A stretch of 16,650 bases of DNA from a virus (UHGV-0207574); one strand, 5' to 3'. Positions 1 through 14,971 are shown, counted from the first letter of the stretch. The notes: generated by a model from the sequence alone, not told the origin. Made by a program: numbers and translations.

Positions 1-73
1 GTTCACTTTAGCTCATCTCATAGCTGAAATTTTGCCGCTATTTTTTTACACTTAAGCGAAAAATGAGGTGATT

Positions 74-1009
74 ATGGAACCCCTTCGTGAAATAAGAAAT
101 CGGCTGCTTAACGGCTGGCAATTATCAAAAATGCATACTTTTGAAGTGGCTGCCAGGCATCAGTCCTTCGCCCTGGCGGCAGAGGAATTGTCGCTGAGCC
201 CCAGTGCGGTAAGTCACCGTATCAATCAGCTGGAAGAAGAATTGGGCATTCAGTTGTTTGTTCGTTCCCATCGCAAAGTGGAATTAACGCACGAGGGGAA
301 ACGTGTTTATTGGGCGCTAAAATCGTCGCTGGATACCCTGAACCAGGAAATTCTTGATATCAAAAATCAGGAGTTATCGGGAACGTTAACTCTGTATTCC
401 CGGCCCTCTATCGCCCAATGCTGGTTGGTGCCCGCATTAGGTGACTTTACACGCCGGTATCCGTCTATTTCGCTCACCGTGCTCACTGGTAATGACAACG
501 TCAATCTGCAACGTGCCGGAATCGATTTGGCGATCTACTTTGATGATGCGCCGTCAGCGCAACTCACTCATCACTTTCTGATGGATGAAGAAATCCTGCC
601 AGTATGTAGCCCGGAATACGCTCAAAGACATGCTTTAACCAACACGGTAATTAACCTGTGTCACTGTACGTTGCTCCATGACAGACAGGCATGGAGCAAC
701 GACTCCGGTACGGATGAATGGCATAGTTGGGCGCAACATTATGCGGTTAATTTGCCGACATCTTCTGGAATTGGCTTTGATCGTTCTGATTTAGCTGTTA
801 TTGCCGCGATGAATCATATTGGGGTGGCGATGGGAAGAAAACGCCTGGTACAAAAAAGGCTTGCCAGTGGTGAGCTCGTCGCGCCGTTTGGCGATATGAC
901 GGTGAAATGCCATCAGCATTATTACATCACCACATTACCGGGCAGGCAGTGGCCAAAAATTGAAGCGTTTATTATCTGGCTAAGAGAACAGGTAAAAACC
1001 ACTTCATAA
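74..1009 (+). CDS. dsdC: LysR-family transcriptional activator of D-serine utilisation (DsdC)
   Basis: The ORF track frame 68..1009 begins with GTG; the ATG at 74 follows a GAGG RBS and gives MEPLREIRNRLLNGWQLSKMHTFEVAARHQSFALAAEELSLSPSAVSHRINQLEEELG, an N-terminal LysR HTH followed by a substrate-binding domain. The sequence matches my recollection of E. coli DsdC. Stop TAA at 1007-1009. Confidence 0.88.
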   Translation: MEPLREIRNRLLNGWQLSKMHTFEVAARHQSFALAAEELSLSPSAVSHRINQLEEELGIQLFVRSHRKVELTHEGKRVYWALKSSLDTLNQEILDIKNQELSGTLTLYSRPSIAQCWLVPALGDFTRRYPSISLTVLTGNDNVNLQRAGIDLAIYFDDAPSAQLTHHFLMDEEILPVCSPEYAQRHALTNTVINLCHCTLLHDRQAWSNDSGTDEWHSWAQHYAVNLPTSSGIGFDRSDLAVIAAMNHIGVAMGRKRLVQKRLASGELVAPFGDMTVKCHQHYYITTLPGRQWPKIEAFIIWLREQVKTTS

Positions 1010-1103
1010 TGAATAAAACCACGAGTTCCTGGTGTGCCTTATTCGGCCTGCTAGTTCGAATTTAATTTACGGTTTTTATGTGGTTTTAGGGATAAACACA
1101 AGG

Positions 1104-1119
1104 ATGGTGTCCCCTGCAG
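1104..1119. repeat. att-right core (direct repeat of the argW 3' end)
   Basis: ATGGTGTCCCCTGCAG is identical to 13679-13694; flanking sequence diverges immediately on both sides. Confidence 0.8.
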
Positions 1120-1176
1120 ACATCTACTTGAGGCGGCAGGGGATTGATTGGAATGGTGTTTTTTAGATGTGAAAAA

Positions 1177-1198
1177 TATTTTACCCGCTATTTTACCC
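1177..1198 (+). repeat. Two direct copies of TATTTTACCC (1177-1186, 1189-1198) next to att-right and the torI 3' end; candidate recombination-protein binding sites
   Basis: Seen directly. The same octamer (as GGGTAAAA / TTTTACCC) recurs three times beside the integrase start at the other prophage end (13519-13563). Confidence 0.4.
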
Positions 1199-1393
1199 AT
1201 TGGCGCGGCTTAAGAGCTTATTTTTGAATTCACAATGGTCACGATATAACCATCTTGCTCGCCCGTGGATAACTTTGGCTTTTGGTAGGTCGCCGGACTT
1301 AATCCGGTCGTAGATGAAGGTTTTACCAAAGCCAGTATCGGCCATGATGAATTTCAAATCAACCAGTGAATCAGGCTGTAGTTCGTGTTGCAT
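1193..1393 (-). CDS. torI: Excisionase / recombination directionality factor TorI (also described as an inhibitor of the Tor response regulator)
   Basis: 66-aa ORF MQHELQPDSLVDLKFIMADTGFGKTFIYDRIKSGDLPKAKVIHGRARWLYRDHCEFKNKLLSRANG, a winged-helix Xis/AlpA-like small protein. Matches my recollection of KplE1 TorI. Sits next to att-right. Confidence 0.85.
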   Translation of the reverse strand: MQHELQPDSLVDLKFIMADTGFGKTFIYDRIKSGDLPKAKVIHGRARWLYRDHCEFKNKLLSRANG

Positions 1394-1412
1394 GAGTGCT
1401 ATCTCCGAATAT

Positions 1413-1428
1413 GGAATCGAACCTGCAA
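1413..1428. other. Internal 16-bp fragment identical to the argW variable-loop/T-arm region
   Basis: GGAATCGAACCTGCAA at 1413-1428 is identical to 13694-13709 inside the argW gene. It lies ~20 bp upstream of the torI start codon and ~300 bp inside the prophage. Confidence 0.5.
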
Positions 1429-1517
1429 ATCAGGCAATAAAAAGCCGCATTGATGCAGCAATGGTAGGTCTGGATATCTTGAGAAATGAACAGGCCTCAT
1501 CGAGTGTGAGACTGTGG

Positions 1518-1862
1518 TTAGTCCTTGCGTAGCTCGCTGATTCTTCTGTAAGTCTCTGGTGCTTTGTTTCCGTGTATCTTCATTTCAGACTTCAACAGAG
1601 CAACGAGGGAATCCCATTCGTTGAGGATGCCTTTGAATGCCGGAACGCGCTTTGCAACCTTGTCGAATGAATCTCTGATTTCTGGAATCTGCTCAACAAG
1701 CGCAACGCATCGCCGGAAATCTGCTGCGTCATGGGGAGCGCCGAAGTGATGACCATAGATATTCTTTTTCAGTCCACATGCGATTGAGGCAAGAGTTGCG
1801 CTACTTATGCCAACATCGCCAGTCGATTGCCATTTCAAAACCTTCATAGCCAAATCTGACAT
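1518..1862 (-). CDS. Hypothetical phage protein (114 aa)
   Basis: ORF track frame 1518..1889. The ATG at 1862 has a GGAGA RBS (GGAGACAAGAA ATG) and gives MSDLAMKVLKWQ...; the longer start at 1889 would lie inside a terminator hairpin. I do not recognise a family. Confidence 0.55.
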   Translation of the reverse strand: MSDLAMKVLKWQSTGDVGISSATLASIACGLKKNIYGHHFGAPHDAADFRRCVALVEQIPEIRDSFDKVAKRVPAFKGILNEWDSLVALLKSEMKIHGNKAPETYRRISELRKD

Positions 1863-1872
1863 TTCTTGTCTC

Positions 1873-1898
1873 CAATAAAAAACCGCCATCAGGCGGCT
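1873..1898 (-). terminator. Putative intrinsic terminator on the minus strand (GCCGCC-TGAT-GGCGG followed by TTTTTTATT)
   Basis: Minus-strand sequence CAAGCCGCCTGATGGCGGTTTTTTATTGGAG: a short GC stem, 4-nt loop and T-tract, immediately upstream of the RBS of the 1518..1862 ORF. An A-tract on the other side means it could act in both directions. Confidence 0.4.
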
Positions 1899-1962
1899 TG
1901 GTGTTCTTTCAGTTCTTCAATTCGAATATTGGTTACATTGTTTTCATATATGAATAAATAAA

Positions 1963-2142
1963 TTAGCTTTTTTCGTTGCCTTCGCGTTCTTTATTAATTT
2001 TGACAAACTCGTTTTTACCACGCTCTCCAAATGCGTCTTTAGAGTCGTTGTATCCGCAATCGCAGCACACATAATCACCAGACCATCCACGCATTGTTTT
2101 TTCTTTTGCAATATTTCCAGAACCGCATTTTGGACAAGACAT
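1963..2142 (-). CDS. Small zinc-ribbon protein (CPKC...CCDCG), 59 aa
   Basis: The ATG at 2142 is preceded by GGAGG (GGAGGTAGTGAT ATG) and gives MSCPKCGSGNIAKEKTMRGWSGDYVCCDCGYNDSKDAFGERGKNEF..., with two Cys pairs spaced as in a zinc ribbon. The ORF track start at 2175 is probably an overextension. Confidence 0.55.
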   Translation of the reverse strand: MSCPKCGSGNIAKEKTMRGWSGDYVCCDCGYNDSKDAFGERGKNEFVKINKEREGNEKS

Positions 2143-2238
2143 ATCACTACCTCCAAAGCATGAGTGAGATGACAACGTAACATTGATTGGAGATTAACAA
2201 TAGATTGCTGATGTAAAAGATATGTATAAGCTTCGCTT

Positions 2239-3066
2239 TCAAAGTGGAGGCTCTGGTAGCGGCATCCAGTGAGTTACGTCATCCAAGATATTTCCTGATA
2301 AATACGTGAAAGCTCTATATTTTTTGTAATCAATTGGATTTACAACCCAGTTCCAATATGCTGCCACGATTTCACCTTGACTAAATGCCAGTAACATTTT
2401 GGTGTCTTCCGGCATTCTCTCACTACAGCTTATCCAACCATCTGGAATTACCGGAGAGTTGCCAGATGGCTCGTTCAACTTGTAAGTTTGGCTTACAGGT
2501 TCGGCACCATGAAGCATGGCGTCGCTCCGCTCTATGCCATCCAGCGCGATTCGCAGTGCCTGAATTGTGGTAGAGCTATCGTTTGGGGCTATTCCATATC
2601 GCTCGAATACAGCTAAATGGTTGCGCATAATCTCAGGCGTAAGCTCTTTGTAAGCATAAGCAAGAGGCTCTGATGCATTATCCGGCACAACCGACGCAGG
2701 CGCGGCAGCATAAACAGGAATAACGTCCGCTTCACGAACCTGCATTGCATAGGCAACGATGTTTGCTGCGCTTGGCGTGTTCTTTGCGATCTCAGCGATA
2801 TAAGCAAAACCGCCAACAGACGCCGTTAACGATTTACGCTCCAGTTCATCGAAAAGCGTCAGGCCATCTACTGGCTTTTGCTCCCGGTGCATTCTGGTTA
2901 TTTCTTCGAAAAGGATTTTGTGTGGCCGGCTGTAAAATGAGTCAGGCTTCAGCATCGCCAGAACTTTCTGGACGCGCTCACTGCTGTCATCATCCAGAAG
3001 CAATCCACCAATCACCGCCTGCTCTGCCTCGATGCTATGGGGCGGCGCATAAAAATTATCGGTCAT
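2239..3066 (-). CDS. Chimeric replication-module protein: DnaB-helicase N-terminal domain fused to an Ead/Ea22-like region and a DUF551-like C-terminus; no helicase ATPase core
   Basis: The ATG at 3066 gives MTDNFYAPPHSIEAEQAVIGGLLLDDD ... LTASVGGFAYIAEIAKNTPSAANIVAYAMQVREA, which closely resembles the primase-interacting N-terminal domain of DnaB (PHSIEAEQ and SVGGFAY..KNTPSAANI motifs). The C-terminus (WISCSERMPEDT ... VTHWMPLPEPPL) resembles DUF551. Start overlaps the stop of the upstream O-like gene by 11 nt. Confidence 0.7.
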   Translation of the reverse strand: MTDNFYAPPHSIEAEQAVIGGLLLDDDSSERVQKVLAMLKPDSFYSRPHKILFEEITRMHREQKPVDGLTLFDELERKSLTASVGGFAYIAEIAKNTPSAANIVAYAMQVREADVIPVYAAAPASVVPDNASEPLAYAYKELTPEIMRNHLAVFERYGIAPNDSSTTIQALRIALDGIERSDAMLHGAEPVSQTYKLNEPSGNSPVIPDGWISCSERMPEDTKMLLAFSQGEIVAAYWNWVVNPIDYKKYRAFTYLSGNILDDVTHWMPLPEPPL

Positions 3067-3946
3067 CGTGTTCACCCTCACGAACTTTCAGGTAGGTATT
3101 GTCGTTAAGCAGGAAATCAAATCCCTTTTTGTGCCAGACGGTTCCGCGTTGATGGTTTGGGCGTTCTTCGAACATCCATCGGCAATTTTCGCCTACGTAG
3201 ATCAAATAATTTCTCCAGTCCTGCATCGTGAACCCATGCCCGTCAAGCTGGCGGGTTATCACTCCGGCTTTGCGCCAGAACGTTCGGATCTGGTTTTTAC
3301 GCTTGTCATTCAGTGCGCGGATTCTTGGCGCTTCAGGAAGGATTTCGTGGTAAGCATCGACAACATCCTGACAGCTGACGGAAGGTTTTTTCTTGTCAGA
3401 CTTTTTGTCTGCTGTGGCACTCTCTAATACGTCAGTATTAGAGATATTATTTATATTATTGTTTATGGACAACCGTTGGACAACCGTTGGACAATCTCCG
3501 CTGAGAGCCGCGCCATTACTGGTGTTTGCGTTGGACAACCGTTGGACAACCGTTGGACAATTTTTTGCCTGAAAATCGTCATATTTAACGATTGTAAACA
3601 GGCTAAATTTCTTCCCCATCGAGCAAATATTAAGCATCCCTTTCGACTCAAAAGTCCGTAATAAGCTCCGAACTTTGTTGTCGGGGATGAATGTTTCTCT
3701 GACCAGCGACGGGCGTCCAGTTATCATCTGACCGCGATCAACAGTTATCGGACCGATATCCGTATTGACGACAGTAGATTCGTGATTAGCCTTGAGGATT
3801 AAGTGAAGCCAAAGATGTACTGCCTGAGAGTCCTTATAGAGCCTGCTGTCCATAAACTGGCGGTGTATAGAGACATACCCCATACTGGATGCCTCCTGAT
3901 GTTGTACAGGGTTATGCCTGTAATCAGCTAACTTAACGACGCCCAT
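3056..3946 (-). CDS. Replication initiator, lambda O-like, with the origin iterons inside the gene
   Basis: 296-aa ORF with an N-terminal region resembling the phage O origin-binding domain (HLWLHLILKANHES...). A central linker is encoded by tandem 11-bp repeats, giving the duplicated peptide CPTVVQRLSN. Translationally coupled to the downstream gene. Confidence 0.7.
   Translation of the reverse strand: MGVVKLADYRHNPVQHQEASSMGYVSIHRQFMDSRLYKDSQAVHLWLHLILKANHESTVVNTDIGPITVDRGQMITGRPSLVRETFIPDNKVRSLLRTFESKGMLNICSMGKKFSLFTIVKYDDFQAKNCPTVVQRLSNANTSNGAALSGDCPTVVQRLSINNNINNISNTDVLESATADKKSDKKKPSVSCQDVVDAYHEILPEAPRIRALNDKRKNQIRTFWRKAGVITRQLDGHGFTMQDWRNYLIYVGENCRWMFEERPNHQRGTVWHKKGFDFLLNDNTYLKVREGEHDDR
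3465..3560. repeat. Putative replication origin: six iterons (unit TTGGACAACCG) in two clusters of three (3465-3496, 3531-3560)
   Basis: Direct tandem repeats seen in the sequence, lying inside the O-like gene as lambda ori lies inside O. Next to them in the gene's direction is an AT-rich tract (3440-3464) and a perfect 9-bp inverted repeat CTCTAATAC-GTCA-GTATTAGAG (3422-3443). Confidence 0.7.
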
Positions 3947-4094
3947 GTTTCACTCCTGCTTTGGCTAGTCTGTAAACACCAACAAGGCGCTCTGCGAACG
4001 CCCTGTTATTTGCTGCGGCTACCACTAATCCCTCAGGTGAATCAGGGTGTCGAATCTCTTCTTTTTCCTGGTATTTCTTACGACGTTTTGTCAT
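3933..4094 (-). CDS. Small basic hypothetical protein (53 aa), not in the ORF track (below the length cutoff)
   Basis: The ATG at 4094 is preceded by AGGAG (ACAGGAGTAATT ATG) and gives MTKRRKKYQEKEEIRHPDSPEGLVVAAANNRAFAERLVGVYRLAKAGVKHGRR. Its 3' end overlaps the RBS and start of the O-like gene. Lies between the cII-like and O-like genes. Confidence 0.4.
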   Translation of the reverse strand: MTKRRKKYQEKEEIRHPDSPEGLVVAAANNRAFAERLVGVYRLAKAGVKHGRR

Positions 4095-4128
4095 AATTAC
4101 TCCTGTGGATTGATCCAGTCTTTCTACA

Positions 4129-4407
4129 TCAGGCCTCGAAGAATTCGCCGTTCTTCGGGGCTTTTTCTTTTGTCAGCATTCTGGCTACTTTCTTAGCCAG
4201 TTCCGCCAACTCCTCGTCTTCAACACCCCATTCAAGAACAGCAAGAAGCATTCCCATTTTGGGGATGAAGCTGTCTTTCCATCGCGAAATTTGCGATTCA
4301 TTAATTCCTAACGCGTCAGCAACCTTTCGCTGACCACGTACAGCAATTCGATTCAGGATGTTGCTTGTAATTGCATTCGCTTTCTTGCGAGTACTTGTAA
4401 GTTCCAT
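4129..4407 (-). CDS. CII-like transcriptional regulator (92 aa)
   Basis: The ATG at 4407 with an AGGAAA RBS gives MELTSTRKKANAITSNILNRIAVRGQRKVADALGINESQISRWKDSFIPKMGMLLAVLEWGVEDEELAELAKKVARMLT..., closely resembling lambda CII (GVDKSQISRWKRDWIPKFSMLLAVLEWGV). The ORF track frame extends upstream to 4494. Confidence 0.75.
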   Translation of the reverse strand: MELTSTRKKANAITSNILNRIAVRGQRKVADALGINESQISRWKDSFIPKMGMLLAVLEWGVEDEELAELAKKVARMLTKEKAPKNGEFFEA

Positions 4408-4463
4408 ATGTAAGTATTTCCTTAACAAATAAGAAGTTATGCGCATCAACTTATGCGCGTTGT

Positions 4464-4509
4464 ATTCCCGCATTTCGGCGGGAATGAGGACCATGACTGT
4501 TAAAGAGCG
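4464..4509 (-). promoter_or_regulatory. nutR-like antitermination site: boxA CGCTCTTTAACA (4498-4509) and a boxB-like hairpin (4464-4485)
   Basis: Minus strand reads CGCTCTTTAACA, a 12-nt spacer, then ATTCCCGC-CGAAAT-GCGGGAAT (8-bp stem, GAAA-containing loop). It sits between the cro fragment and the cII-like gene, as nutR does in lambda. Confidence 0.5.
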
Positions 4510-4515
4510 GTGTTA

Positions 4516-4614
4516 CTATTTGTTTTTCTTGTTGCTTGGGAAAGGACGAACTTCCTCTCCAATCACACTGCCATCAGGCTTTACCGTAAACGACGCTATA
4601 CAGCCAGATGGCAA
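4516..4614 (-). pseudogene. cro gene, 3' fragment only
   Basis: Minus-strand frame ending at stop 4516-4518 translates to ...CIASFTVKPDGSVIGEEVRPFPSNKKNK, matching the lambda Cro C-terminus (INADGSVYAEEVKPFPSNKKTTA). There is no N-terminal part and no in-frame start. Confidence 0.65.
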
Positions 4615-4730
4615 TCAACTGCGCAGTGCATGAGAAAAAGCCCGCTCTGATGTTCAGCCTTGAAATGCCAGGTGATCAGATACTGGAAAAACTGGTAGGG
4701 CAGAAGTCTGGTGTTAACCCGAATATTTTT
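4611..4730 (+). pseudogene. Fragment of a DnaB-family helicase core (region just after Walker A), on the plus strand
   Basis: The first ~40 codons of the ORF track frame 4608..5093 read AINCAVHEKKPALMFSLEMPGDQILEKLVGQKSGVNPNIF, resembling E. coli DnaB (AMNLCENAAMLQDKPVLIFSLEMPSEQIMMRSL). The rest of that frame looks like non-coding alt-frame sequence. Confidence 0.4.
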
Positions 4731-4759
4731 TACCTTCCGGCGACAAATGACGCTGATGA

Positions 4760-5281
4760 CGGCTACTCGGGGAAAACATCCTTTCCTGCGATACGGAGAA
4801 GAGTATCCGGGAGCGATTTTCTGTTTACCAGGTGGCGGGGCAGCGTGCCGGAAACGACGATGATTTCGGTGAGGCCACCACCACCGCGCTGCGGGCCCGC
4901 ACAGAGGACGCATTTATTGCCCGTTACCGTCCGATGTATATCAGGCAGACAGGGCAGGCTACGGGGGCAGGCTGTATTGCCCGTGCGGACTTTGAAGCCC
5001 GGCAACGGGCGGCGCGGACGGATGAAACCACCTATGTGGTGCAGGGCTGGCGACAGGGTAACGGTACGCTGTGGCAGCCCAACCAGCGGGTGATTGTCTT
5101 CGATCCGGTCTGTGGTTTCGACAATACCGAACTGCTTGTCTCGGAAGTCACGTTTACTCAGGACCAGAATGGCACCCTGACGGAAATCCGTGTCGGCCCA
5201 CCTGATGCTTATCTGCCTGAACCCGAAGCCCCCGGCGCGCGGAAAAAGAAAAAAGCCAGAGTACAGGAGGACCCGTTCTGA
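4760..5281 (+). pseudogene. 5'-truncated baseplate-hub/tail gene (Mu gp44 / P2 gpD-like), C-terminal part
   Basis: The frame is open from the stop at 4757-4759 with only a GTG at 4832 as a possible start. Its stop overlaps the start of the downstream gpV-like gene (TGATG), and position and composition match the upstream member of a Mu-type baseplate cluster. Family assignment is by position, not recognised sequence. Confidence 0.45.
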
Positions 5282-5829
5282 TGAGGACGATTGAAGCCAT
5301 GCAGCGACAACTCCTCGGCCTGATTGGGCGGGCCGTGGTGAAAAGCATCAGTGCCGCCACGAAATGTCAGACCGTGGATGTGTCCCTGATTGCCGGTGAA
5401 CCCAAAGCCGGGATTGAACATCTTGAACCCTACGGTTTTACCGCAAGGGCAAACAGCGGTGCGGAAGCGGTGGTGTTGTTTCCGGATGGCGACCGTTCTC
5501 ATGCGGTGGTTGTTACGGTGTCGGACCGGCGTTACCGCCTGAAAGGGCTGCAGACGGGTGAGGTGGCTGTCTATGACGATCAGGGGCAGTCCGTGACGCT
5601 GACCCGGGAGGGGATCGTGGTGGACGGTGCAGGTAAAACGATCACGTTTCGCAATGCGCCCAGAGCACGTTTTGAAATGGACCTGGAAGTGACCGGACAG
5701 GTGAAAGACCTGTGCGACTCCGGCGGCACCACCATGTCAGCGATGCGGCTTGCCTATAACGGGCATCGTCACAGAGAGAACGGTCAGGGCAGTAACACCG
5801 ACAAACCTGATAAAGCGATGGAGGCATGA
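5281..5829 (+). CDS. Baseplate assembly/spike protein, gpV-like (Mu gp45-like)
   Basis: 182-aa ORF, translationally coupled on both sides, GC-rich, with a C-terminal DSGGTT motif that I recall from P2 gpV-type proteins. Confidence 0.65.
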   Translation: MRTIEAMQRQLLGLIGRAVVKSISAATKCQTVDVSLIAGEPKAGIEHLEPYGFTARANSGAEAVVLFPDGDRSHAVVVTVSDRRYRLKGLQTGEVAVYDDQGQSVTLTREGIVVDGAGKTITFRNAPRARFEMDLEVTGQVKDLCDSGGTTMSAMRLAYNGHRHRENGQGSNTDKPDKAMEA

Positions 5830-6254
5830 TGGTACTGTGGCTGACGGTGAACGGTAAACGCACCTGCGCCAGCGCACCGCTGGATCCGCTGACCCGCGCC
5901 GTGGTGATTTCCCTGTTTACCTGGCGGCGGGCGGAGCCTGATGACAACGCCGACGTCCCGATGGGATGGTGGGGGGATACCTGGCCTGCGGTACAGAATG
6001 ACCGTTACGGCTCCCGGCTGTGGCTGCTTCAGCGCAGCAAACTGACCAATCAGCTGGTGCAGACGGTAAGGGGGTATATCCGCGAATGTCTGCAATGGAT
6101 GATTGATGACGGCGTGGTGTCCCGTATTGATCTGGATATCCGCCGCACCGGGATTAATGAACTGGGTAACAGTATCACTCTCTGGCGTCGTGACGGACCG
6201 GTAATGATTTCTTTTGATGATCTGTGGAGTGCGATAACGCATGGCGGACAGTGA
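5826..6254 (+). CDS. Baseplate protein, phage GP46 family (gpW-like)
   Basis: 142-aa ORF with start overlapping the upstream stop (ATGA). Size and position between the V-like and J-like genes are typical of a Mu-type baseplate cluster. Confidence 0.6.
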   Translation: MMVLWLTVNGKRTCASAPLDPLTRAVVISLFTWRRAEPDDNADVPMGWWGDTWPAVQNDRYGSRLWLLQRSKLTNQLVQTVRGYIRECLQWMIDDGVVSRIDLDIRRTGINELGNSITLWRRDGPVMISFDDLWSAITHGGQ

Positions 6255-7299
6255 ATTTCAGCGCCCGACGCTGGCAGAAAATATCAGTATGCTCCGTAAC
6301 GATTTATTCGCCAGGCTGGACGTCAGCGACACGCTCCGGCGCATGGATGAAGACGTGCGGGCAAAGGTGTATGCGGCGGCGCTGCATACGGTTTACGGGT
6401 ACATCGATTATCTGGCAATGAACATGCTGCCTGACCTGTGCGATGAGTCCTGGCTGGCGCGACATGCTGCGATGAAACGGTGTCCGCGCAAGGGGGCCAC
6501 GGCTGCCAGCGGGTATATGCGCTGGGAAGGTGTCAGCGATGGCCTGAAGGTGACCGCCGGGAGTGTTATTCAGCGCGATGACCTGGTTCAGTACACGGCA
6601 ACTGCCGATGCAACCAGCTCCGGTGGTGTCCTGCGCGTGCCGATCGCCTGCTCAAGTTCAGGCGCGGTCGGTAACGCTGACGACGGTACGTCATTAATCC
6701 TGGTCACGCCGGTGAATGGTCTGCCGTCTTCCGGTGTGGCTGACACCCTGACAGGCGGATTTGATACTGAAGATCTGGAAACGTGGCGCGCCCGCATCAT
6801 TGAGCGGTATTACTGGACGCCGCAGGGCGGGGCTGACGTGGACTATGTCGTCTGGGCTAAAGAAGTGCCCGGCATTACCCGCGCATGGACATACCGACAC
6901 TGGATGGGAACGGGGACTGTCGGTGTGATGATTGCCAGCAGTGACCTGATTAACCCCATTCCGGAAGAATCAACGGAAACGGCAGCAAGACAACATATCG
7001 GGCCACTGGCCCCGGTGGCAGGCTCTGATTTGTATGTATTCAGGCCGGTGGCGCACAAAGTGGATTTTCATATCCGCGTGACGCCGGACACACCGGAAAT
7101 ACGGGCTGCCATTACCGCAGAGTTGCGTTCATTCCTGCTGCGTGATGGTTATCCGCAGGGAGAGCTGAAGGTATCGCGTATCAGTGAAGCGATTTCCGGT
7201 GCGAACGGGGAATACAGCCATCAGTTGCTTGCTCCGGCGGACAATATCTCCATTGCAAAAAATGAACTGGCGGTTCTGGGGACGATTTCATGGACGTGA
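6241..7299 (+). CDS. Baseplate J-like protein (Mu gp47-like)
   Basis: 352-aa ORF in the conserved V-W-J-I order, overlapping its neighbours. Confidence 0.65.
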
Positions 7300-7874
7300 C
7301 AAACGATGATTACATCCGTCTGTTGTCGGCACTGCTGCCGCCCGGTCCGGCGTGGTCAGCCAGCGATCCGGCGATTGCCGGTGCGGCACCGTCATTAACT
7401 CGTGTTCATCAGCGTGCGGATGCCCTGATGCGGGAGCTGGATCCGCGCACCACCACCGAACTGATAAATCGCTGGGAGCGTCTGTGCGGCCTGCCGGATG
7501 AATGTATTCCCGCAGGGACACAGACCCTTCGCCAGCGTCAGCAACGGCTGGATGCGAAGGTTAACCTGGCGGGTGGCATCAACGAGGATTTTTATCTTGC
7601 ACAGCTTGCTGCCCTGGGCAGACCAGATGCCACCATCACGCGATACGACAAAAGCACGTTCACCTGCTCATCGGCCTGTACTGACGCTGTGAATGCGCCG
7701 GAATGGCGGTATTACTGGCAGGTCAACATGCCAGCCGCCGCCAACACCACCTGGATGACATGTGGCGATCCCTGTGATTCCGCACTGCGTATCTGGGGTG
7801 ACACCGTTGTCGAGTGTGTGCTTAACAAACTCTGCCCGTCGCATACCTACGTAATTTTTAAATATCCGGAGTAA
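7290..7874 (+). CDS. Tail protein, Mu gp48 / YmfQ-like (P2 gpI position)
   Basis: 194-aa ORF directly downstream of the J-like gene and upstream of the tail-fibre gene. Confidence 0.6.
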
Positions 7875-7877
7875 TCC

Positions 7878-8519
7878 ATGCATCGTATAGACACGAAAAC
7901 CGCGCAGAAGGATAAGTTCGGCGCGGGTAAGAACGGTTTTACCCGTGGTAACCCCCAGACCGGCACGCCTGCCACCGATCTGGATGATGACTACTTTGAC
8001 ATGTTGCAGGAGGAGCTTTGCAGCGTTGTGGAGGCCTCCGGTGCCAGCCTGGAGAAGGGGCGGCATGACCAGCTGCTTACCGCGCTTCGTGCGCTGCTGT
8101 TAAGCCGCAAGAATCCGTTTGGCGATATCAAATTGGACGGCACGGTGCAAAAGGCTCTCGAAAACCTTGGTTTGGGAGAAGCGGCTAAAAGAAATGTAGG
8201 GACAGGGGCGAATCAGATACCTGATATGGGTAGCTTCACGCTTTCTGTTTCAGGTACTGGATATCAAAAATTGCCATCCGGTTTAATTATTCAATGGGGG
8301 CCAATTGATGTTCCGCTGACGTCTCAGGACACAGTAACCTATTTTCCGATTGCATTTCCGAATAGATGTCTGCGGGTATTTGCGACTCAGGATTACACTC
8401 CCGGCAGTGCAAATGTTGGCTATATAGCTTGTGCCGGTTATAACCAGGACCCGGTGAAATTTATTTCCAGAGCAGGCGTACCCGGTCTCGGTGCTTCATT
8501 TTTCGCATTAGGGTGTTAA
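7878..8519 (+). CDS. Tail fibre protein (short; constant N-terminal part plus variable C-terminal part)
   Basis: GGAG RBS. The N-terminus [74 protein letters not shown] is the conserved tail-fibre N-terminal region of Mu/P2-type fibres. GC content drops sharply after ~8180. Confidence 0.7.
8155..8180. promoter_or_regulatory. Candidate relic serine-invertase crossover site (gix/hix-like) inside the tail-fibre gene
   Basis: CTCTCGAAAACC-TT-GGTTTGGGAGAA is an imperfect 26-bp dyad with the AAACC-NN-GGTTT core typical of Gin/Hin/Pin sites as I recall them. It lies at the constant/variable junction of the fibre and coincides with the GC drop. Confidence 0.35.
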
Positions 8520-8545
8520 TTTCTTTTAACTTTATGGAGTGAAAA

Positions 8546-8986
8546 ATGAATCACATATATTCCGCGACTACAAACTCTTTCTATCCCTTGGAGATGAAAG
8601 AGGATTACACGCAAGCTGGCTCATGGCCAGATGATGCTGTTGAAGTTGATGAGCAAGTGTATATTGAGTTTTCCGGATTACCGCCGAAAGGAAAAATCCG
8701 TATCGCTGGAGAAAATGGTTTTCCTGCATGGTCTGAAATTCCACCACCAACACATGAGGAACAGATTGCTGCAGCCGAACTGAAAAAGCAGCAATTGATT
8801 AATCAGGCCAACGATTATATGAACAGTAAACAATGGGCTGGTAAAGCGGCTATTGGTCGTCTGAAAGGTGAGGAACTGGCGCAATATAATTTGTGGCTGG
8901 ATTATCTGGACGCACTGGAGCTGGTCGATACTTCCAGTGCGCCAGATATTGAATGGCCTACTCCTCCGGCAGTTCAGGCCAGATGA
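8546..8986 (+). CDS. Tail fibre assembly protein (Tfa/U-like)
   Basis: 146-aa ORF with a GGAG RBS, ending ...SSAPDIEWPTPPAVQAR, a typical Tfa C-terminus. Immediately downstream of the tail-fibre gene. Confidence 0.7.
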   Translation: MNHIYSATTNSFYPLEMKEDYTQAGSWPDDAVEVDEQVYIEFSGLPPKGKIRIAGENGFPAWSEIPPPTHEEQIAAAELKKQQLINQANDYMNSKQWAGKAAIGRLKGEELAQYNLWLDYLDALELVDTSSAPDIEWPTPPAVQAR

Positions 8987-9260
8987 CATCCGGCGCGGTG
9001 CTGGTATCTGTTGCCGTCACCGCGTCAATGTAATCCAGCACAGTGTTAAGTCGGGAGGTCTCTGCCTGCATCAGCTTCCGCCCAGCCCGTAATTTCAGTT
9101 GAATCAGACTAATGGAAGCCATTGCAGTATCAATCAGTGACTGACGCTGTGCTTCTGCCGCGTCTACTGCGGCGTGATGCTGTGCCTCAGTATCGGTCAC
9201 CCATTTCTCACCATCCCATTTATCGTATGGCGTTAATGGGGCGATAGTCGCGGGACGCAT
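8958..9260 (-). pseudogene. Second tail fibre assembly gene (C-terminal half only), convergent with and overlapping the first
   Basis: Minus-strand frame MRPATIAPLTPYDKWDGEKWVTD...TSTAPDVIWPELPEE has a Tfa-like C-terminus. It is blocked upstream by a stop at 9318-9320, so at most ~120 codons remain. Overlaps the 3' end of the plus-strand tfa by ~29 bp. Confidence 0.5.
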
Positions 9261-9284
9261 ACAAACATAACCCCTGGATGTTAT

Positions 9285-9566
9285 GTGTCTATCGAGAATC
9301 AAAGTGGAAGTCCTTATGTTAAGTATAAGACAGGAATCACTTATAACGATAATCAGTTAGTATATGTATCTATCACTGTTGATGATAATATCAGCACTTG
9401 GTTCTGGAGGGGGTTTGTTGTGGGCAATGATGCATTTAAGTTATCGTCTGCAGATAGAGGAGATATTACAATAAACAACGAATCAGGGCATTTGATAGTC
9501 AATACCGCAATTCTATCAGGAGATATAGTCACTCTAAGAGGAGGAGAAATTAGGTTGGTATTATAG
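9285..9566 (+). other. Orphan ORF (93 codons, GTG start, no internal Met), possibly a 3' gene fragment
   Basis: VSIENQSGSPYVKYKTGITYNDNQ...DIVTLRGGEIRLVL is rich in N/T/S/V/I, like the beta-rich tip of a fibre. There is no ATG and only a weak RBS. It lies in low-GC DNA between the tfa remnant and gtrC. Confidence 0.25.
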
Positions 9567-9570
9567 CTTG

Positions 9571-9592
9571 TGCGCGCCATGATTGGCGCGCA
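9571..9592. repeat. Perfect GC-rich palindrome TGCGCGCCA-TGAT-TGGCGCGCA between the convergent stop codons of the orphan ORF and gtrC
   Basis: 9-bp perfect inverted repeat with a 4-nt loop and no adjacent T-tract on either strand. Could be a terminator-like hairpin or a protein-binding palindrome. Confidence 0.45.
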
Positions 9593-9600
9593 ATTTAAAC

Positions 9601-10932
9601 TTAGTGCTTTACATCGCTATTGTCTTGATTTCTTTGAATTATTTTATAAATTAAAAAAACGACTGTTATGTATAAGCAAAGGTCGAACGAAAAATACATT
9701 CCAAATAAATGCTTGCTTAAATCTCTATATCCTTCCCCGAAAAATGACACATAAAATTGAGATATTCCAAAAAGAGATACTACAAATAAAGATGCCTTTA
9801 TTTTATTATTTCTAATAAAAATAGAAGCAATAAAAAATAATAACAATGATATAAATCTAATGTTTTTAAATATATTGTCTTTTATGTTAGTAATAGTCGT
9901 TAGTATGTTTGATTCTCCATATATTACGTGTAGTTTTTTATATACATGGAAATAATTTTCTTTATACTGAGACATCACACCATCATCAAATGGAAGTTTG
10001 AAGATGGTGCTTGGTTTGCTAACCAATAAAAAGAGTGCATTCGAAAACGTTTCATCTTTATGAGATTCGAAACATTCCGTTCCAACTTCTGTTGGGGTTG
10101 CGCCAAATGATATGTCGAATTTATTACCCCAAGCATCTAACCCAACACACTTATCATCAACATACGATGGCATTTTATACCCGTTGTTTTTCATATAAAG
10201 ATAACTACCGAAGTATGTTGCATGGTACTTATTTAATTCAACAACACCTTTTGAATAAGATATTGCAAATATTGACGCAAGCAAGCACACCACGCATATT
10301 ACAGATTTAATAATTAGTTTGTGTCTATCAAAAAAAATATAATATGAATACACTATTAGTGGGGTTAATATAAATTGATTTTTAGCAGTAGATATTATTA
10401 GCAACGAAAAAAATAGCAAAAGCATAGATTTATTGTTTTTGCATGTTAATGAATACACCAAAAATGGAAGGAAAATTATAACTATTTGCTCTTGATAGAA
10501 TGATGCAAACATTGACAGTGTTGATGAAGAACACATAAGAAAAGCTAAAATAAAGAATGTAAATAAAGTTACATACCTTTCTGTTTTTATATATGAAGTA
10601 AATATCGCATATAATGAATAAATATATATTACTTTTAGAAATAACGATAACACCCTAGCATCAAGATATTCAGTAAAAATGCTAATAAACAGGACGTATG
10701 TATACAAAATATAACTATATGAACTTATATACTCATAGCTATCAATTGAATCAATATGACCTTTCAATTTATACAATAAAGGTAAGTCATATGTAAATGC
10801 TGGTATGTCTTCAATTAATGGCTTAATGGCTCTTCCGAAATCAGATGTATTTAACATCATTATGTTTTTAGATAAGGCGCAAATAATCAAAACAAAAGAT
10901 ATATACAATGATACTTTTATTGCTTTATTCAT
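9601..10932 (-). CDS. gtrS: Serotype-specific O-antigen glucosyltransferase, GtrC-type polytopic membrane protein (K-12 equivalent yfdI/gtrS)
   Basis: 443-aa, very AT-rich, highly hydrophobic multi-pass ORF. Third gene of a gtrA-gtrB-gtrC operon and translationally coupled to gtrB. The family is defined by position and topology rather than sequence conservation. Confidence 0.7.
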
Positions 10933-11849
10933 TTTTTGACTCTCTTGATGATGTATTTCGGGCGTTTTTTGGTTTCAATGTATGTGCGTCCAATATATTC
11001 ACCTAATACTCCTATTCCAATCATCTGAATTCCACCTAAAAACAGTATTGAAACAAGTAGTGAAGGATATCCCCTAACAGCATTTCCAAATATGATAGTA
11101 TCTAAAATCATCCACGCCCCATAAATAAATGCTACACTGGCTACCACTAACCCTATGTATGTCCAGATGCGAAGAGGGAATGTGGAAAAGCTTGTAATAC
11201 CCTCAAGTGCTAAATTCCAAAGTTTCCATCCATTAAATTTTGTATCTCCAGCAATTCTTTCCGCTCGCACGTATTCAACAATATCTGTCTTTCCTCCTAC
11301 CCAGCTCAGAATACCTTTCATGAAAAGGTTTCGTTCTGGCATAAGTTTAATATTTTCGACAACATCACGGCTCATCAGCCTGAAATCACCAACATTCTCT
11401 TCAATTTTAGGATTGCTTATTTTATTGTGGAGCTTATAGAACCACTCAGCCGTTTTTCGCTTCAGGCGTCCATCAGTTGAGCGGTCAGATCTTTTAGCAA
11501 GAACCATATCAGCACCTGCTTGCCATTTTTCAATAAGATGAGGAATAACCTCAATCGGGTCTTGCAGGTCAACATCAATTGGGATTATCGCATCCCCGGT
11601 TGCATGGTCTAACCCTGCAAACAATGCTGGTTCTTTACCAAAGTTGCGTGTAAATGACAGCGGAACAACTAGAGGATCTGAAACAGCCAGAGCATTAATG
11701 ATTGACTCCGTAGCGTCTTTGCTGCCGTCATTTATGAAAACGATTTCCACTTCATATGACTTCAATTCTTCGAATTCACGTACCGTTTTATAAAAAATTG
11801 GTATCGCTTCTTCTTCATTGAAGACAGGAACTACAAGAGATATCTTCAT
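10929..11849 (-). CDS. gtrB: Bactoprenol glucosyltransferase GtrB (GT2 family)
   Basis: 306-aa [23 protein letters not shown]...INDGSKDAT...DVDLQDP: a GT2 catalytic domain followed by C-terminal transmembrane helices, as in GtrB/YfdH. Confidence 0.85.
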
Positions 11850-12208
11850 TTCGCATCCCTAAAGACAATGAACTTTGAATAGACGAAACCGCACACCAGG
11901 CTGATGGCGGAGAAGGTGACAAGAGTTATCATCGGGGGAAGTGCGCATCTATCAGCAGCCCATCCAACAGTAGCACTCAGTGTCCCCATGAACCCAACAT
12001 ATAGCATGTAGCGCATCGTTGTAGTCGATGCCTTGAATGTGAATTTTGCATTCGCGAAGAAGCTAAAGCTCACAGCCACAACGAAACCTGCGAAGTTTGC
12101 AAGAGCTTGGTTTGTATGCGCGACATAGATACAAACACCAAAAACCACCCAGTGTATAAGGGTGTTCAGCACACCAATAGAGGTGTACTTTGCAAATAGC
12201 TTTAACAT
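11846..12208 (-). CDS. gtrA: GtrA family flippase for undecaprenyl-phosphate glucose
   Basis: 120-aa small four-helix membrane protein, first gene of the operon, overlapping gtrB by 4 nt. Confidence 0.8.
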
Positions 12209-12360
12209 TTCTTCTATCAGCTAATAATCAAAGGAATGAAGTCTATCATCCAAGTCTTAATCGATCGATACTTGCTGTGGTTGATGAGACAAAACTTATA
12301 CACACAAAGCTTTGCACTGGATTGCAAGACTTTGTGCTATTCGATAGTTGTTAAGGTCGC

Positions 12361-13518
12361 TCACTCCACCTTCTCATCAAGCCAGTCCGCCCACCATTGC
12401 ATCATTTCTCTGCGTTTATCGAGATACTGAGCATGGTTGTAAATCCCACGCACAGATCCGCCGTTTGCATGTGCCAGTTGCACTTCAATAGCGTCAGCAG
12501 GCCATTCGTGCTCGTTCATAATCGTGCTGAATTCATGCCTGAATCCGTGACCGCTTTCCAGACCCTCATAGCCGATTTGTTTGATCACAAGCAGTACCGC
12601 GTTCTCGCAGATTGGCTTCTTCTTATCGTTGCGCCCGGCAAAAACAAACTCTGAGACTGGTTTGGTGATGGAGCTTAGCGTAGTGAGAAGTTCAACTACC
12701 TGGTCTGACATAGGAACCACATGAATTTTGCGTCCTTTCATCACACTGGCGTCGATGGTGATAATCCTATTTTCAAAATCGACGTTCTTCCATAGCATGG
12801 AACGAAGCTCTTTCGTTCTTAGGGCTGTGTAGCGTAAAACTTTGGTCGCAATGAGCGATACGATACTTCCTGAAAATGTTGCCAGTGCTTTGTTGAATGC
12901 CGGGATCTGGTCTGCAGGAAGAAACGGGAAGTTCTTCTTGCGGTATCCCTTCATGGCGTCAGCAAGGTCAGGTGCCGGGTTATATTTAGCCCTTCCGGTG
13001 ACAATAGCGTAACGGAAAACCTCGCCGCATCTTCTGCGTGCTTTGTTGGCTCGTTCCATTGCACCGCGATCTTCAAACCTGCGGATTACTTCCAGCAGTT
13101 GCATCGGCTCAATATCCTGAATTTCAAGGCCGCCAATGATAGGTAAAATGTCGTCGTCAAACATTTTGGCAAGTTCAGTTGCATACCCTACTGACCATAC
13201 TTGCTTCTTGTGCTCGTACCATTCCTTGTAAATCGCACTAAAGGAATTGTTGTTAGACGAAGCCTTTTTCGCCTTTACAGGATCGATGCCAACCGAGATG
13301 TCTTTCCTCGCAGTCCATGCTTTATCCCTTGCCTCCTGCAAAGTCATAAGCGGATATTTTCCGACGGTCAGGATTTTCTCCTTACCGTCAATCTTGTAGC
13401 GAAGCTGCCATACCTTTTTCCCTGACACAGGGACATAAAGGTACAGGCCATTACCATCGAGAAGGCGGTATGGTTTTTCTTTCGGCTTTGCTGCTTCAAT
13501 CTGCTTAACGGTGAGCAT
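12361..13518 (-). CDS. intS: Tyrosine-family site-specific integrase (IntS-like)
   Basis: From the ATG at 13518 (MLTVKQIEAAKPKEKPYRLLDGNGLYLYV...) the protein has a P4-type integrase N-terminus and a C-terminal catalytic domain (...HGFRHEFSTIMNEH...GIYNHAQYL). The ORF track starts at an upstream GTG at 13554. Adjacent to the tRNA. Confidence 0.85.
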   Translation of the reverse strand: MLTVKQIEAAKPKEKPYRLLDGNGLYLYVPVSGKKVWQLRYKIDGKEKILTVGKYPLMTLQEARDKAWTARKDISVGIDPVKAKKASSNNNSFSAIYKEWYEHKKQVWSVGYATELAKMFDDDILPIIGGLEIQDIEPMQLLEVIRRFEDRGAMERANKARRRCGEVFRYAIVTGRAKYNPAPDLADAMKGYRKKNFPFLPADQIPAFNKALATFSGSIVSLIATKVLRYTALRTKELRSMLWKNVDFENRIITIDASVMKGRKIHVVPMSDQVVELLTTLSSITKPVSEFVFAGRNDKKKPICENAVLLVIKQIGYEGLESGHGFRHEFSTIMNEHEWPADAIEVQLAHANGGSVRGIYNHAQYLDKRREMMQWWADWLDEKVE

Positions 13519-13563
13519 GGGTAAAAATCCGGTGGGTAAAATTATTTTATCCACTTTTTACCC
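13519..13563. repeat. Octamer repeats GGGTAAAA (13519-13526, 13534-13541) and inverted TTTTTACCC (13555-13563) at the integrase 5' end; candidate arm-type or RDF binding sites
   Basis: Seen directly. The same motif occurs twice next to att-right (1177-1198). Confidence 0.4.
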
Positions 13564-13678
13564 GTCATGGAGTGCGGCTGTCAACGATCTGAAGCGAACC
13601 ATGACGAACTGTAAATCTACGGAATGCTTGATATTCAGGGGATTTTGCGGACTGGTACGGATGGGAGCGAACTGATAA

Positions 13679-13694
13679 ATGGTGTCCCCTGCAG
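13679..13694. repeat. att-left core overlapping the 3' end of argW
   Basis: ATGGTGTCCCCTGCAG, identical to 1104-1119. Confidence 0.8.
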
Positions 13695-13754
13695 GAATCG
13701 AACCTGCAATTAGCCCTTAGGAGGGGCTCGTTATATCCATTTAACTAAGAGGAC
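13680..13754 (-). tRNA. argW: tRNA-Arg (anticodon CCU)
   Basis: Minus-strand 75-nt sequence GTCCTCTTAGTTAAATGGATATAACGAGCCCCTCCTAAGGGCTAATTGCAGGTTCGATTCCTGCAGGGGACACCA. It has the acceptor stem, an anticodon loop CU-CCU-AA, a GGTTCGATTCC T-arm and an encoded CCA end. Confidence 0.9.
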
Positions 13755-13765
13755 AATGCGGCATG

Positions 13766-13794
13766 AGTATACCCGCTAATGGAGTGCGGGGTAA
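13766..13794 (-). promoter_or_regulatory. Putative argW promoter (-35 TTACCC, 17-bp spacer, -10 TATACT)
   Basis: Minus-strand hexamers ~12 nt upstream of the mature tRNA 5' end, followed by a GC-rich discriminator. Weak -35 element. Confidence 0.3.
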
Positions 13795-13829
13795 GTACGC
13801 TGCCGCTCGATTGCTTAAACCCTCGCCAT

Positions 13830-14762
13830 TTATGCCGGGTTTTTATAATTTTTCTTAATGTTTTCCGCACGTTCTGCTTTTTGGCGTGCTTCTGCTTTAC
13901 GCTTATTGCTCATGTCGTTACGAATCTGTGCATGACTCATTAACGCGAAGATAAAGGTGCCGCCGCAGATGTTCCCCGCTAAAGTAGGTAGTGCGAAGGG
14001 CCAGATGAAATCGCTCCAGTGCAGCGTACCGTTAAACACCAGATAGAGGATTTCAACAGAACCGACCACGATATGGGTGGTGTCACCCAGGGCAATAAGC
14101 CAGGTCATCAATATAATCACCACAATCTTTGCCGCACCCGCTGCAGGAAACATCCAAACCATAGTGGCGATCAGCCAGCCGGAAATGATCGCGTTGGCAA
14201 ACATCTCGCTGGGGGTGTTCTTCATCACATCCATGCCGATTTTGACAAATGCATCGCGAGTTTCTTCATTGAAGATAGGCATATATTCAAATGCCCACGC
14301 CGCAATACCTGTCCCGAGAATATTACCCAGCAGCACGACGCCCCATAACCGTATAAGTAAGCCGACGTTGCTCATTGTCGGTTTTTGCATGACGGGTAGT
14401 ACCGCAGTCACGGTATTTTCGGTAAATAATTGCTGGCGGGCCATAATGACGATAATAAAACCAAAGGTATAACCGAGATTCTCCAGCAAGAAGCTGCCCG
14501 GCACACCTTCCAGTTCGACTTGAAATATCCCTTTTGCCAGTAACGAAGCGCCCATCGACAGACCCGCCGCAATGGCTGACCACAGTAGCGCCATTGCGTC
14601 GCGTTCCAGCTCTTTTTCACCATCCTGGCGGATATGCTCATGAATTGCCATCGCCCGGGAGGGGAGTCGGTCTTCATCTATTTCTATTTTTTTGCCGCGC
14701 TCTTTTTCTTCGCTCTCAACTTCAATTTCGTCGCTGTGTTGATCAATTTTGTCGTTGTCCAT
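13830..14762 (-). CDS. yfdC: Formate/nitrite transporter (FNT) family inner-membrane protein
   Basis: 310-aa ORF with an acidic N-terminal extension followed by a polytopic membrane core. Matches my recollection of E. coli YfdC in size and position next to argW. Confidence 0.8.
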   Translation of the reverse strand: MDNDKIDQHSDEIEVESEEKERGKKIEIDEDRLPSRAMAIHEHIRQDGEKELERDAMALLWSAIAAGLSMGASLLAKGIFQVELEGVPGSFLLENLGYTFGFIIVIMARQQLFTENTVTAVLPVMQKPTMSNVGLLIRLWGVVLLGNILGTGIAAWAFEYMPIFNEETRDAFVKIGMDVMKNTPSEMFANAIISGWLIATMVWMFPAAGAAKIVVIILMTWLIALGDTTHIVVGSVEILYLVFNGTLHWSDFIWPFALPTLAGNICGGTFIFALMSHAQIRNDMSNKRKAEARQKAERAENIKKNYKNPA

Positions 14763-14943
14763 GGTCTCTTCTCTTGAATTAGCACGTATAGCTAAAGCGT
14801 AGCGGCTTTTTTGCTCGCAACTGACGGGAGTTACTCTGAAAATGTAGAAAAGGCTGCGTTTGCCTTTTTCTGTTTCTATAGAATCAAGTAGCCTACAGGG
14901 CGGCGATTACCAGGCTATGATCAAATCAGCAAATCAGGGCGTC

Positions 14944-14971
14944 TGGACATCAGTTGACGTGCTGTTACAAT
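14944..14971 (+). promoter_or_regulatory. Putative sigma-70 promoter for mlaA (-35 TGGACA, 16-bp spacer, -10 TACAAT)
   Basis: Hexamers at 14944-14949 and 14966-14971, ~85 bp upstream of the mlaA start. Confidence 0.35.

Follow-up and report, generated by a model that had tools for sequence, protein, structure and literature searches.

The viral DNA stretch UHGV-0207574 (16,650 nucleotides; the whole stretch is hereafter called the window) carries at positions 1104-13694 what is almost certainly a defective member of the KplE1/CPS-53 prophage family that a tyrosine integrase inserted at the 3' end of the tRNA gene argW. The element is a structural variant of the thoroughly characterised KplE1/CPS-53 remnant of Escherichia coli K-12. 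It combines the recombination module and the gtr cargo of that remnant with an interior of different origin.

A perfect 16-bp direct repeat brackets the element, which spans 12.6 kb, as a preliminary description made from the sequence alone had claimed. The repeat, ATGGTGTCCCCTGCAG, occurs exactly twice in the window, and it still occurs only twice when up to two mismatches are allowed (0.01 expected as the mean of shuffled sequences; none of 200 shuffles gave two copies). The right copy comprises the last 15 nucleotides of argW, including the encoded CCA, and one base beyond. These features of the insertion site are:

1104-1119, no strand: attR core, the dsdC-proximal, partial copy of the argW 3' end (exact 16-mer repeat)
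13679-13694, no strand: attL core, inside functional argW (exact 16-mer repeat, position of the tRNA according to ARAGORN)
13680-13754, minus strand: argW, tRNA-Arg(CCT), the integration target, intact (ARAGORN; Rfam RF00005, 63.4 bits)

The tRNA was the sole Rfam match in the window at the gathering threshold. Since the neighbouring bases differ on both sides of the two copies (g at 1103 vs a at 13678; a at 1120 vs g at 13695), the repeat is exactly 16 bp long and does not belong to any longer duplication of host sequence. Its reverse complement, CTGCAGGGGACACCAT, is printed as the duplicated 16-nucleotide core that borders KplE1 (CPS-53) in K-12 argW (PMC2951348), and insertion at the 3' end of argW that duplicates this core marks the KplE1/CPS-53-type recombination module of argW phages. 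The location at argW and the kinship with CPS-53 that the preliminary description had proposed are thus borne out.

We then searched 5,426 complete E. coli genomes by megablast, which placed the window at dsdC-[prophage]-argW-yfdC-mlaA-yfdF. The predicted excision product, made by joining window 604-1103 to 13679-14178, was found in one piece at 100% over 1000 bp in many E. coli strains, where it is annotated as dsdC, tRNA-Arg and yfdC; at least 80% of it is covered in one place in 911 of the 5,426 genomes. The uninterrupted dsdC-argW junction that had been anticipated at the core therefore exists, and related genomes contain a precise empty site. The arm with intS and attL is present at a coverage of at least 80% in 1,864 genomes. 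On the phage side, window 12368-13694 aligns with positions 16788-18114 of phage Sf6 and window 1104-1448 with Sf6 18099-18443. The two alignments are contiguous and overlap exactly at the annotated attP core of Sf6 (18099-18114), which identifies the ends of the element as the two halves of a phage int-attP-xis region. The host flank is the same as in K-12 up to base 1131, with divergence beginning 13 bp inside the prophage.

The recombination module is split between the two ends of the element:

12361..13518, minus strand: intS, tyrosine integrase of 385 amino acids (PF00589, PF22022, PF13356)
13519..13678, minus strand: attL arm overlapping the intS promoter (sequence read; 0 differences from K-12)
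13584-13579 and 13560-13555, minus strand: -35 (TTGACA) and -10 (TAAAAA) of the intS promoter (motif positions)
13672-13668, 13652-13648, 13609-13605, 13599-13595 and 13589-13585, minus strand: TorI sites in attL, reading GTTCG, GTCCG, GTTCG, GTTCG and GATCG (site definitions from K-12, PMC2951348)
13519-13526, 13534-13541 and 13556-13563: arm-type TTTTACCC sites in the attL arm (motif search)
1120..1192, no strand: attR arm with two TTTTACCC arm-type repeats at 1179-1186 and 1191-1198 (motif search)
1193..1393, minus strand: torI, recombination directionality factor (excisionase; annotated torI in matching genomes)

IntS is the same as K-12 IntS at all 385 of 385 residues and has four differences from the Sf6 integrase, while TorI is the same as both K-12 TorI and Sf6 P18 at 66 of 66 residues. 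Window 11763-16650 differs from a K-12 genome at position 15560 only; the attL/intS promoter region is therefore the very sequence that was dissected experimentally in K-12, where the TorI sites and the arm-type IntS sites were defined (PMC2951348). Read along the minus strand, attL presents the core, the TorI sites, the -35, the -10, the arm-type repeats and the intS start codon ATG, in agreement with the published description (PMC2951348). intS is the neighbour of attL; its promoter overlaps attL, and TorI sites and arm-type IntS sites surround the -35 and -10. torI adjoins attR at the prophage's other end, with 73 bp between gene and core. The arm-type motif TTTTACCC has six copies in the window against 0.59 expected, and five of the six fall within about 175 bp of the cores.

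In K-12, IntS catalyses recombination between attL and attR and needs TorI for directionality; the intS promoter inside attL is repressed by both IntS and TorI, and the supply of TorI governs excision (PMC2951348, PMC3509656). Overexpression of torI cures K-12 of CPS-53 (PMC3105296). Given the sequence identity to the K-12 element, the prophage in the window would probably operate in the same way. IntS would bind the 16-bp cores and the TTTTACCC arm sites, and TorI the five attL sites, together with host bending proteins. Recombination between attL and attR would release a circle of 12,575 bp and restore a clean dsdC-argW junction. Repression of the intS promoter by IntS and TorI would leave excision limited by the supply of TorI. 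The circle would be unable to propagate as a phage, with lytic and virion modules missing and the replicative helicase truncated.

Searches with Pfam and PHROGs and comparison with annotated homologues revealed no repressor, N, Q, holin/endolysin, terminase, portal, capsid, sheath, tube or tape-measure family in the interval. All open reading frames were accounted for, and the annotations of K-12 and of the argW remnant of E. coli strain 1409 (NZ_CP063369.1) agree on the missing modules. The element accordingly lacks genes for immunity, lysis, packaging and virion assembly, and it contains truncated remnants of gpP, dnaB (in two pieces), cro and tfaS. The preliminary description had correctly reported that repressor, N, Q, lysis, head and terminase genes are missing, and its list of an integrase, a recombination directionality factor, an O-like initiator, baseplate, fibre and gtr genes stands. 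Its replication genes, however, do not form a working set, because the helicase is represented by a 336-nucleotide stump only, and its inventory overlooked an intact cII gene, a 74-nucleotide stump of cro and a 178-bp scrap of dnaB.

What sets the element apart from its relatives is its interior. The left arm (1105-4765) is P22/Sf6-like and the right arm, from 4764 onward, is SfIV-like. Strain 1409 shares window 1-1515 and 4764-16650 (the latter at 99.73% nucleotide identity, including the baseplate genes), and K-12 shares 1-1515, 7940-11766 and 11763-16650. The part specific to the window, 1516-4763, is P22-like. The following features make up this left arm:

1518..1862, minus strand: 114-amino-acid early-left gene of P22-like argW prophages (phrog_1229, E=9e-52)
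1944..2123, minus strand: 59-amino-acid homologue of 'Eag protein' (Eag annotation in E. coli TW10590; phrog_2945)
2239..3066, minus strand: in-frame chimera of 275 amino acids, DnaB-like helicase N-terminal domain with a DUF551 C-terminus (PF00772 and PF04448)
3056..3946, minus strand: O-like replication initiator, 296 amino acids (phrog_345, E=6e-84)
3455-3572: iteron origin within the O-like gene (11-bp-phased TGGACAACCGT repeats)
3933..4094, minus strand: 53-amino-acid homologue of Sf6 gene 42 (phrog_1331; annotated neighbours)
4129..4407, minus strand: cII-like transcriptional activator, intact, 92 amino acids (PF05269, E=2e-42; phrog_191)
4516..4589, minus strand: 3' stump of cro, 74 nucleotides, the last ~24 codons (homology to cro of the STEC384 and mEpX2 prophages ends at 4589)
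4588..4765, plus strand: orphan internal dnaB-like fragment, 178 bp (Sf6 29547-29724 at 97.8% in direct orientation; STEC384 at 98.9%)

Two sources can be distinguished within the left arm. In window 1105-2271 and 2476-2732 the sequence matches that of the early-left genes near attR in the P22-like argW prophage of TW10590, with which the element shares torI, the 114-amino-acid gene, Eag and the DUF551 arm at 98.5%. The 114-amino-acid gene adjoins torI likewise in TW10590 and in metagenome contigs, and the Eag homologue has a weak Lar-like Pfam match in precomputed records. Window 2731-4589 matches the cro-cII-O-dnaB region of lambdoid/P22-like phages at 99%, including mEpX2 and the STEC384 prophage; identity to Sf6 is 98.6% over window 2731-4424, which takes in the shared cII-O-dnaB block. 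Sf6 gene 43 corresponds to the O-like initiator, likewise at 98.6% nucleotide identity, and the rep_origin annotated in Sf6 maps inside the initiator gene; the length of cII equals that of the annotated cII of matching prophages. The helicase part of the chimera is the 336-nucleotide dnaB stump (2731-3066), fused in frame to DUF551. Since the block lies on the strand opposite xis in Sf6 and on the same strand as torI here, the cro'-cII-O-dnaB' block is inverted. The dnaB scrap at 4588-4765 derives from the same dnaB gene, 331 nucleotides further in, and has kept the original orientation, opposite to that of the stump. An open reading frame running from this scrap into the gpP remnant (4608-5093) has a weak DnaB_C match over its first 39 residues.

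The pieces meet at three junctions, each with 2 bp shared between the sequences that it joins:

J1, 2731/2732, shared TT: Sf6 homology ends at 2731 and TW10590 homology at 2732
J2, 4588/4589, shared AA: cro stump to dnaB fragment
J3, 4764/4765, shared TA: dnaB fragment to gpP

On the evidence of these sequences, the 2-bp microhomology at J1, J2 and J3 is a signature of illegitimate joining. The whole arrangement is present in none of the complete E. coli genomes, the best two of which cover 80%, and none of those genomes spans the junction regions. A 28-mer across J2 (cro'|dnaB) is also absent from species-representative genomes. An exact-protein look-up of the chimera nevertheless returned seven contigs from independent ENA metagenome assemblies when the ATG start was used (275 amino acids, as in phage homologues), and none with the GTG start (280 amino acids). 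Three of the contigs were inspected: L008 agrees with window 1-8375 at 99.93% and extends across all three junctions, while L009 and L010 match window 1-4034 at 100%, across dsdC-attR-torI and J1. The context of L008 and L009 continues into dsdX, dsdA, emrYK and evgAS; L010, which is shorter, stops in dsdX. A misassembly of two different prophages into one sequence, which the lack of these junctions in complete and (for J2) species-representative genomes might suggest, is in the light of these contigs a vanishingly improbable explanation.

At J1, the dnaB breakpoint falls after about nucleotide 336, at the end of the DnaB N-terminal domain. The same breakpoint to the nucleotide, 'TT|CACGAACC', occurs in an independent rearrangement in E. 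coli CT02 (record L004, about 4001-4008), where the same dnaB stump runs out of frame into part of a portal gene, not into DUF551. The match is either a coincidence or a breakage hotspot.

The most economical history, which is a parsimony argument from the sequences, requires few events. A P22/Sf6-like phage with the same attP would have entered argW beside a resident SfIV-like, gtr-carrying remnant resembling that of strain 1409, and the attR-proximal arm would have been gained, most simply by tandem lysogeny or by site-specific exchange at the core. One deletion from the incoming dnaB to the resident gpP would have created J3, and one flip of the segment from mid-cro to dnaB nucleotide 336 would have created J1 and J2, at the cost of the early-left/cI region to one side and 331 nucleotides of dnaB to the other.

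With the block inverted, a promoter of the PRE type at cII would now face the dnaB scrap and the baseplate and tail-fibre genes. At the 5' end of cII, a cII-box-like TTGC-N6-TTGT is found at 4385-4398 (plus strand). A terminator-like hairpin with a 14-bp stem and a T-run lies at 4131-4163 (plus strand), antisense to the 3' end of cII, in the position of the lambdoid oop RNA terminator; Rfam gave no match for this region at the gathering threshold.

The right arm comprises the following features:

4764..5281, plus strand: truncated baseplate hub gene (Mu gpP/gp44 type), C-terminal ~172 codons (PF21929)
5281..7874, plus strand: Mu-type baseplate genes gp45, gp46, gp47 (J) and gp48, of intact length (PF06890, PF07409, PF04865, PF10076)
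7878-8519, plus strand: short tail-fibre gene of the yfdL type, 213 amino acids (PF21882)
8546-8986, plus strand: yfdK, tail-fibre assembly, 146 amino acids (PF02413)
8958..9248, minus strand: tfaS, inverted tail-fibre assembly pseudogene without its N-terminus (pseudogene annotation in matching genomes; partial PF02413)
9420-9566, plus strand: yodE
9601-10932, minus strand: gtrS, O-antigen glucosylation operon
10929-11849, minus strand: gtrB (PF00535)
11846-12208, minus strand: gtrA (PF04138)

Homology to strain 1409 and to SfIV gp15 starts at 4764. Nucleotide identity amounts to 97.5% with SfIV (window 4764-8228) and to 97.7% with vB_EcoM-720R4 (window 4764-9248), and the baseplate and tail-fibre block as a whole is shared at 97-98% with SfIV, SfII, SfI, SfV and vB_EcoM-720R4, all of which, unlike the element, are complete phages. 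The gene order of tail fibre, tfa, inverted tfa, gtr(type), gtrB, gtrA and int is likewise that of the SfIV-type phages, and the gp44-gp48 block followed by short fibre, tfa and gtr places the right arm in the SfV/SfIV lineage. The position of the attachment site does not follow this lineage. In SfIV, int and xis are adjacent and lie beside gtrA, where, judging by gene order, a 262-bp gap next to gtrA that the record leaves unannotated is probably attP; in the window, intS and torI flank the att core, which puts the two genes at opposite ends of the prophage. The gtrS gene of the window is unrelated to gtrIV of SfIV save for a 100-nucleotide patch.

The order of genes in SfIV also accounts for the two known remnants. 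After xis, SfIV carries homologues of yfdT/S/R/Q/P, then cI, an O-like gene and a yfdN-like gene, and from this order K-12 KplE1 and the strain 1409 remnant can be explained as different deletion derivatives of an SfIV-like phage, although in contrast to SfIV both carry an int-attP-xis module of the Sf6 type. That module is shared at 97% nucleotide identity with Sf6, HK620, CUS-3 and P22-like argW prophages. Unlike the element, they possess an entire early-left operon together with cI, nin, Q, lysis, head and tailspike genes, and their replication block lies on the strand opposite xis, whereas it is inverted and truncated here. Strain 1409 shares the recombination module and still has yfdT-yfdP', part of gpN and all of gpP; the element instead has the P22-like arm, and its gpP is cut at 4764. 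K-12 KplE1/CPS-53 shares the argW site, the 16-nucleotide core, identical IntS, TorI, GtrA, GtrS and attL/PintS, a right arm of yfdL-yfdK-tfaS'-gtr-intS (99.5-99.98% nucleotide identity over 7940-16650), and the lack of a repressor and lytic genes. It is shorter (10.2 kb vs 12.6 kb) and contains yfdT-yfdP and yfdO'NM', which are absent from the window; in their place the element has P22-like early-left genes, the inverted cro'-cII-O-dnaB' block and five Mu-type baseplate genes.

The preliminary description had read the range of guanine-plus-cytosine (GC) content, from ~28% to ~58%, as a sign of assembly from at least three sources. The range itself was confirmed (0.275 in gtrS, 0.581 in the baseplate block), but the interpretation does not hold. 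Intact SfIV has the same contrast between its tail genes and gtr(type), with 0.579 in the baseplate genes and 0.326 in gtrIV against 0.503 in the whole genome, so the extremes were inherited from the parental phage family and not assembled in place. The P22-like arm ranges from 0.44 to 0.48, compared with 0.46 for the host. On the sequence comparisons, the true mosaic boundary is that between the P22/Sf6-like left arm and the SfIV-like right arm, which is visible by homology and invisible in GC content. Outside the element, the yfdF region (15751-16650) has a GC content of 0.33-0.37, compared with about 0.47-0.53 in its neighbours.

Several points weigh against an excisable KplE1-family prophage that was pieced together at argW. 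A single hybrid phage with P22-like early and SfIV-like late genes would explain the two arms equally well. No complete genome has the arrangement. Competence for excision is itself only predicted, and the attR arm has three private substitutions (1132, 1135 and 1173) between the core and the arm-type repeats. K-12, strain 1409 and Sf6 agree mutually at these positions and differ from the window, and TW10590 has the base of the window at 1135 only; of the metagenome contigs inspected, two out of three show no difference from the window there. The substitutions raise the prospect of a fixed island that behaves as ordinary chromosomal genes, its excision blocked by them or by missing regulation of torI. 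The sequence upstream of torI indeed departs from K-12 from 1412 onward and contains terminator-like hairpins on the torI strand (minus) at 1444-1459, upstream of torI, and at 1880-1899, upstream of the 114-amino-acid gene, that could insulate torI from read-through; spontaneous excision of CPS-53 is below 1e-5, or less than one per 100,000 cells, even in K-12 (PMC3105296). We nevertheless regard a fixed island as unlikely, given that the attR core and both arm-type repeats are intact, that attL, IntS and TorI are the same as the experimentally excisable K-12 versions, and that the empty argW site (911 genomes) and the intS/attL arm (1,864 genomes) are both common, as expected if elements with this module integrate and are lost. 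Terminator-like sites number 11 in 1000-5000, compared with 4.5 +/- 1.9 in shuffled sequences. A scan for consensus promoters gave four matches against 5.8 in shuffles, fewer than by chance, and was not used as evidence.

The intact integrase, recombination directionality factor, O-like initiator with origin repeats and cII, along with a length of 12.6 kb that falls in the size range of satellites, would also suit a helper-dependent satellite of the phage-inducible chromosomal island (PICI) type, in which the O initiator and iteron origin are replicated after excision with the helicase of a superinfecting Sf6/HK620-type phage and the helper packages the circle. Yet hallmarks of such satellites, namely an AlpA-type activator, a primase-replicase, capsid-size redirection and a small terminase, were not found with Pfam, PHROGs or PADLOC, and no pac or cos site turned up, although no search was aimed at packaging sites. 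Random decay has left its signature in the 2-bp microhomology of the junctions, in the orphan dnaB scrap and in the cut-off gpP, and the sister remnants of K-12 and strain 1409 lack the O/ori block altogether. A PICI-type satellite is accordingly a highly improbable reading. A looser version, that the excised circle with its O initiator, iteron origin and cII is amplified and perhaps mobilised by the DnaB-like helicase of a superinfecting Sf6/HK620-type phage, or that the DnaB-N::DUF551 chimera interferes with that helicase, is a long shot too; if true, it would make the element a helper-dependent or helper-interfering partner of argW phages and not pure debris. PADLOC found no defence-system family among the unassigned open reading frames.

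Returning to the defective KplE1/CPS-53-family prophage, its significance is modest: beyond bookkeeping, it is one more product of decay and recombination in the family to which the best-characterised argW remnant belongs. It does illustrate how two lineages, P22/Sf6-like and SfIV-like, that have one int-attP-xis module can swap arms at a tRNA site, and how the recombination module and the gtr cargo stay unchanged while the interior is reshuffled. For annotation, it identifies yfdL, yfdK and tfaS of K-12 as the tail end of the Mu-type baseplate and fibre block of an SfIV-like phage.

The gtr genes form one operon beside the integrase and comprise GtrA (PF04138), the GT2 bactoprenol glucosyltransferase GtrB and a polytopic, serotype-specific Gtr(type) protein. 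GtrS (443/443 amino acids) and GtrA (120/120) are the same as in K-12, and GtrB is 100% the same as in strain 1409. This gtrS allele is found in 365 of the 5,426 complete genomes and, among the matches listed, mostly in laboratory strains derived from K-12. GtrABS of CPS-53 adds a glucose side branch to the O16 O-antigen and blocks several phages (PMC11990801, PMC10578602). The identity of GtrS and GtrA to the K-12 proteins points to glucosylation as the function here if the host has a suitable O-antigen: gtrABS would be functional cargo that places a glucose side branch on O16-type O-antigen and blocks some phages.

Between intS and gtrA (12209-12360) there is one GATC only, at 12263-12266, which sits in the palindrome-like ATCGATCGAT, and the region thus lacks paired sites of the Dam/OxyR type. 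In Salmonella, gtr operons have paired GATC sites upstream of gtrA and undergo Dam/OxyR phase variation. Paired-GATC control marks one regulatory subtype and not the gtr operon itself.

Some minor observations concern the right arm and its surroundings. The genes gp45-gp48 keep the reading-frame lengths of SfIV despite the truncated upstream hub gene and the lack of tube and sheath genes. A tailocin was considered and ruled out, as sheath, tube and tape-measure genes are missing and the hub gene is incomplete. An invertible fibre segment of the Gin/Cin type as a current function was ruled out as well, as there is no invertase gene and the same inverted tfa is present in intact SfIV. YfdK is one amino acid apart from the K-12 protein. 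In TW10590, beside the same attR/torI end, a csc sucrose-utilisation cluster comprising a LacI-family regulator, cscA, a kinase and a transporter replaces dsdC and most of dsdX (record L011, 830-6164). In the top-matching K-12 C600-type genomes, an IS3 lies inside gtrB (yfdH; C600, record L002, 9936-11098), while gtrB of the window is uninterrupted.

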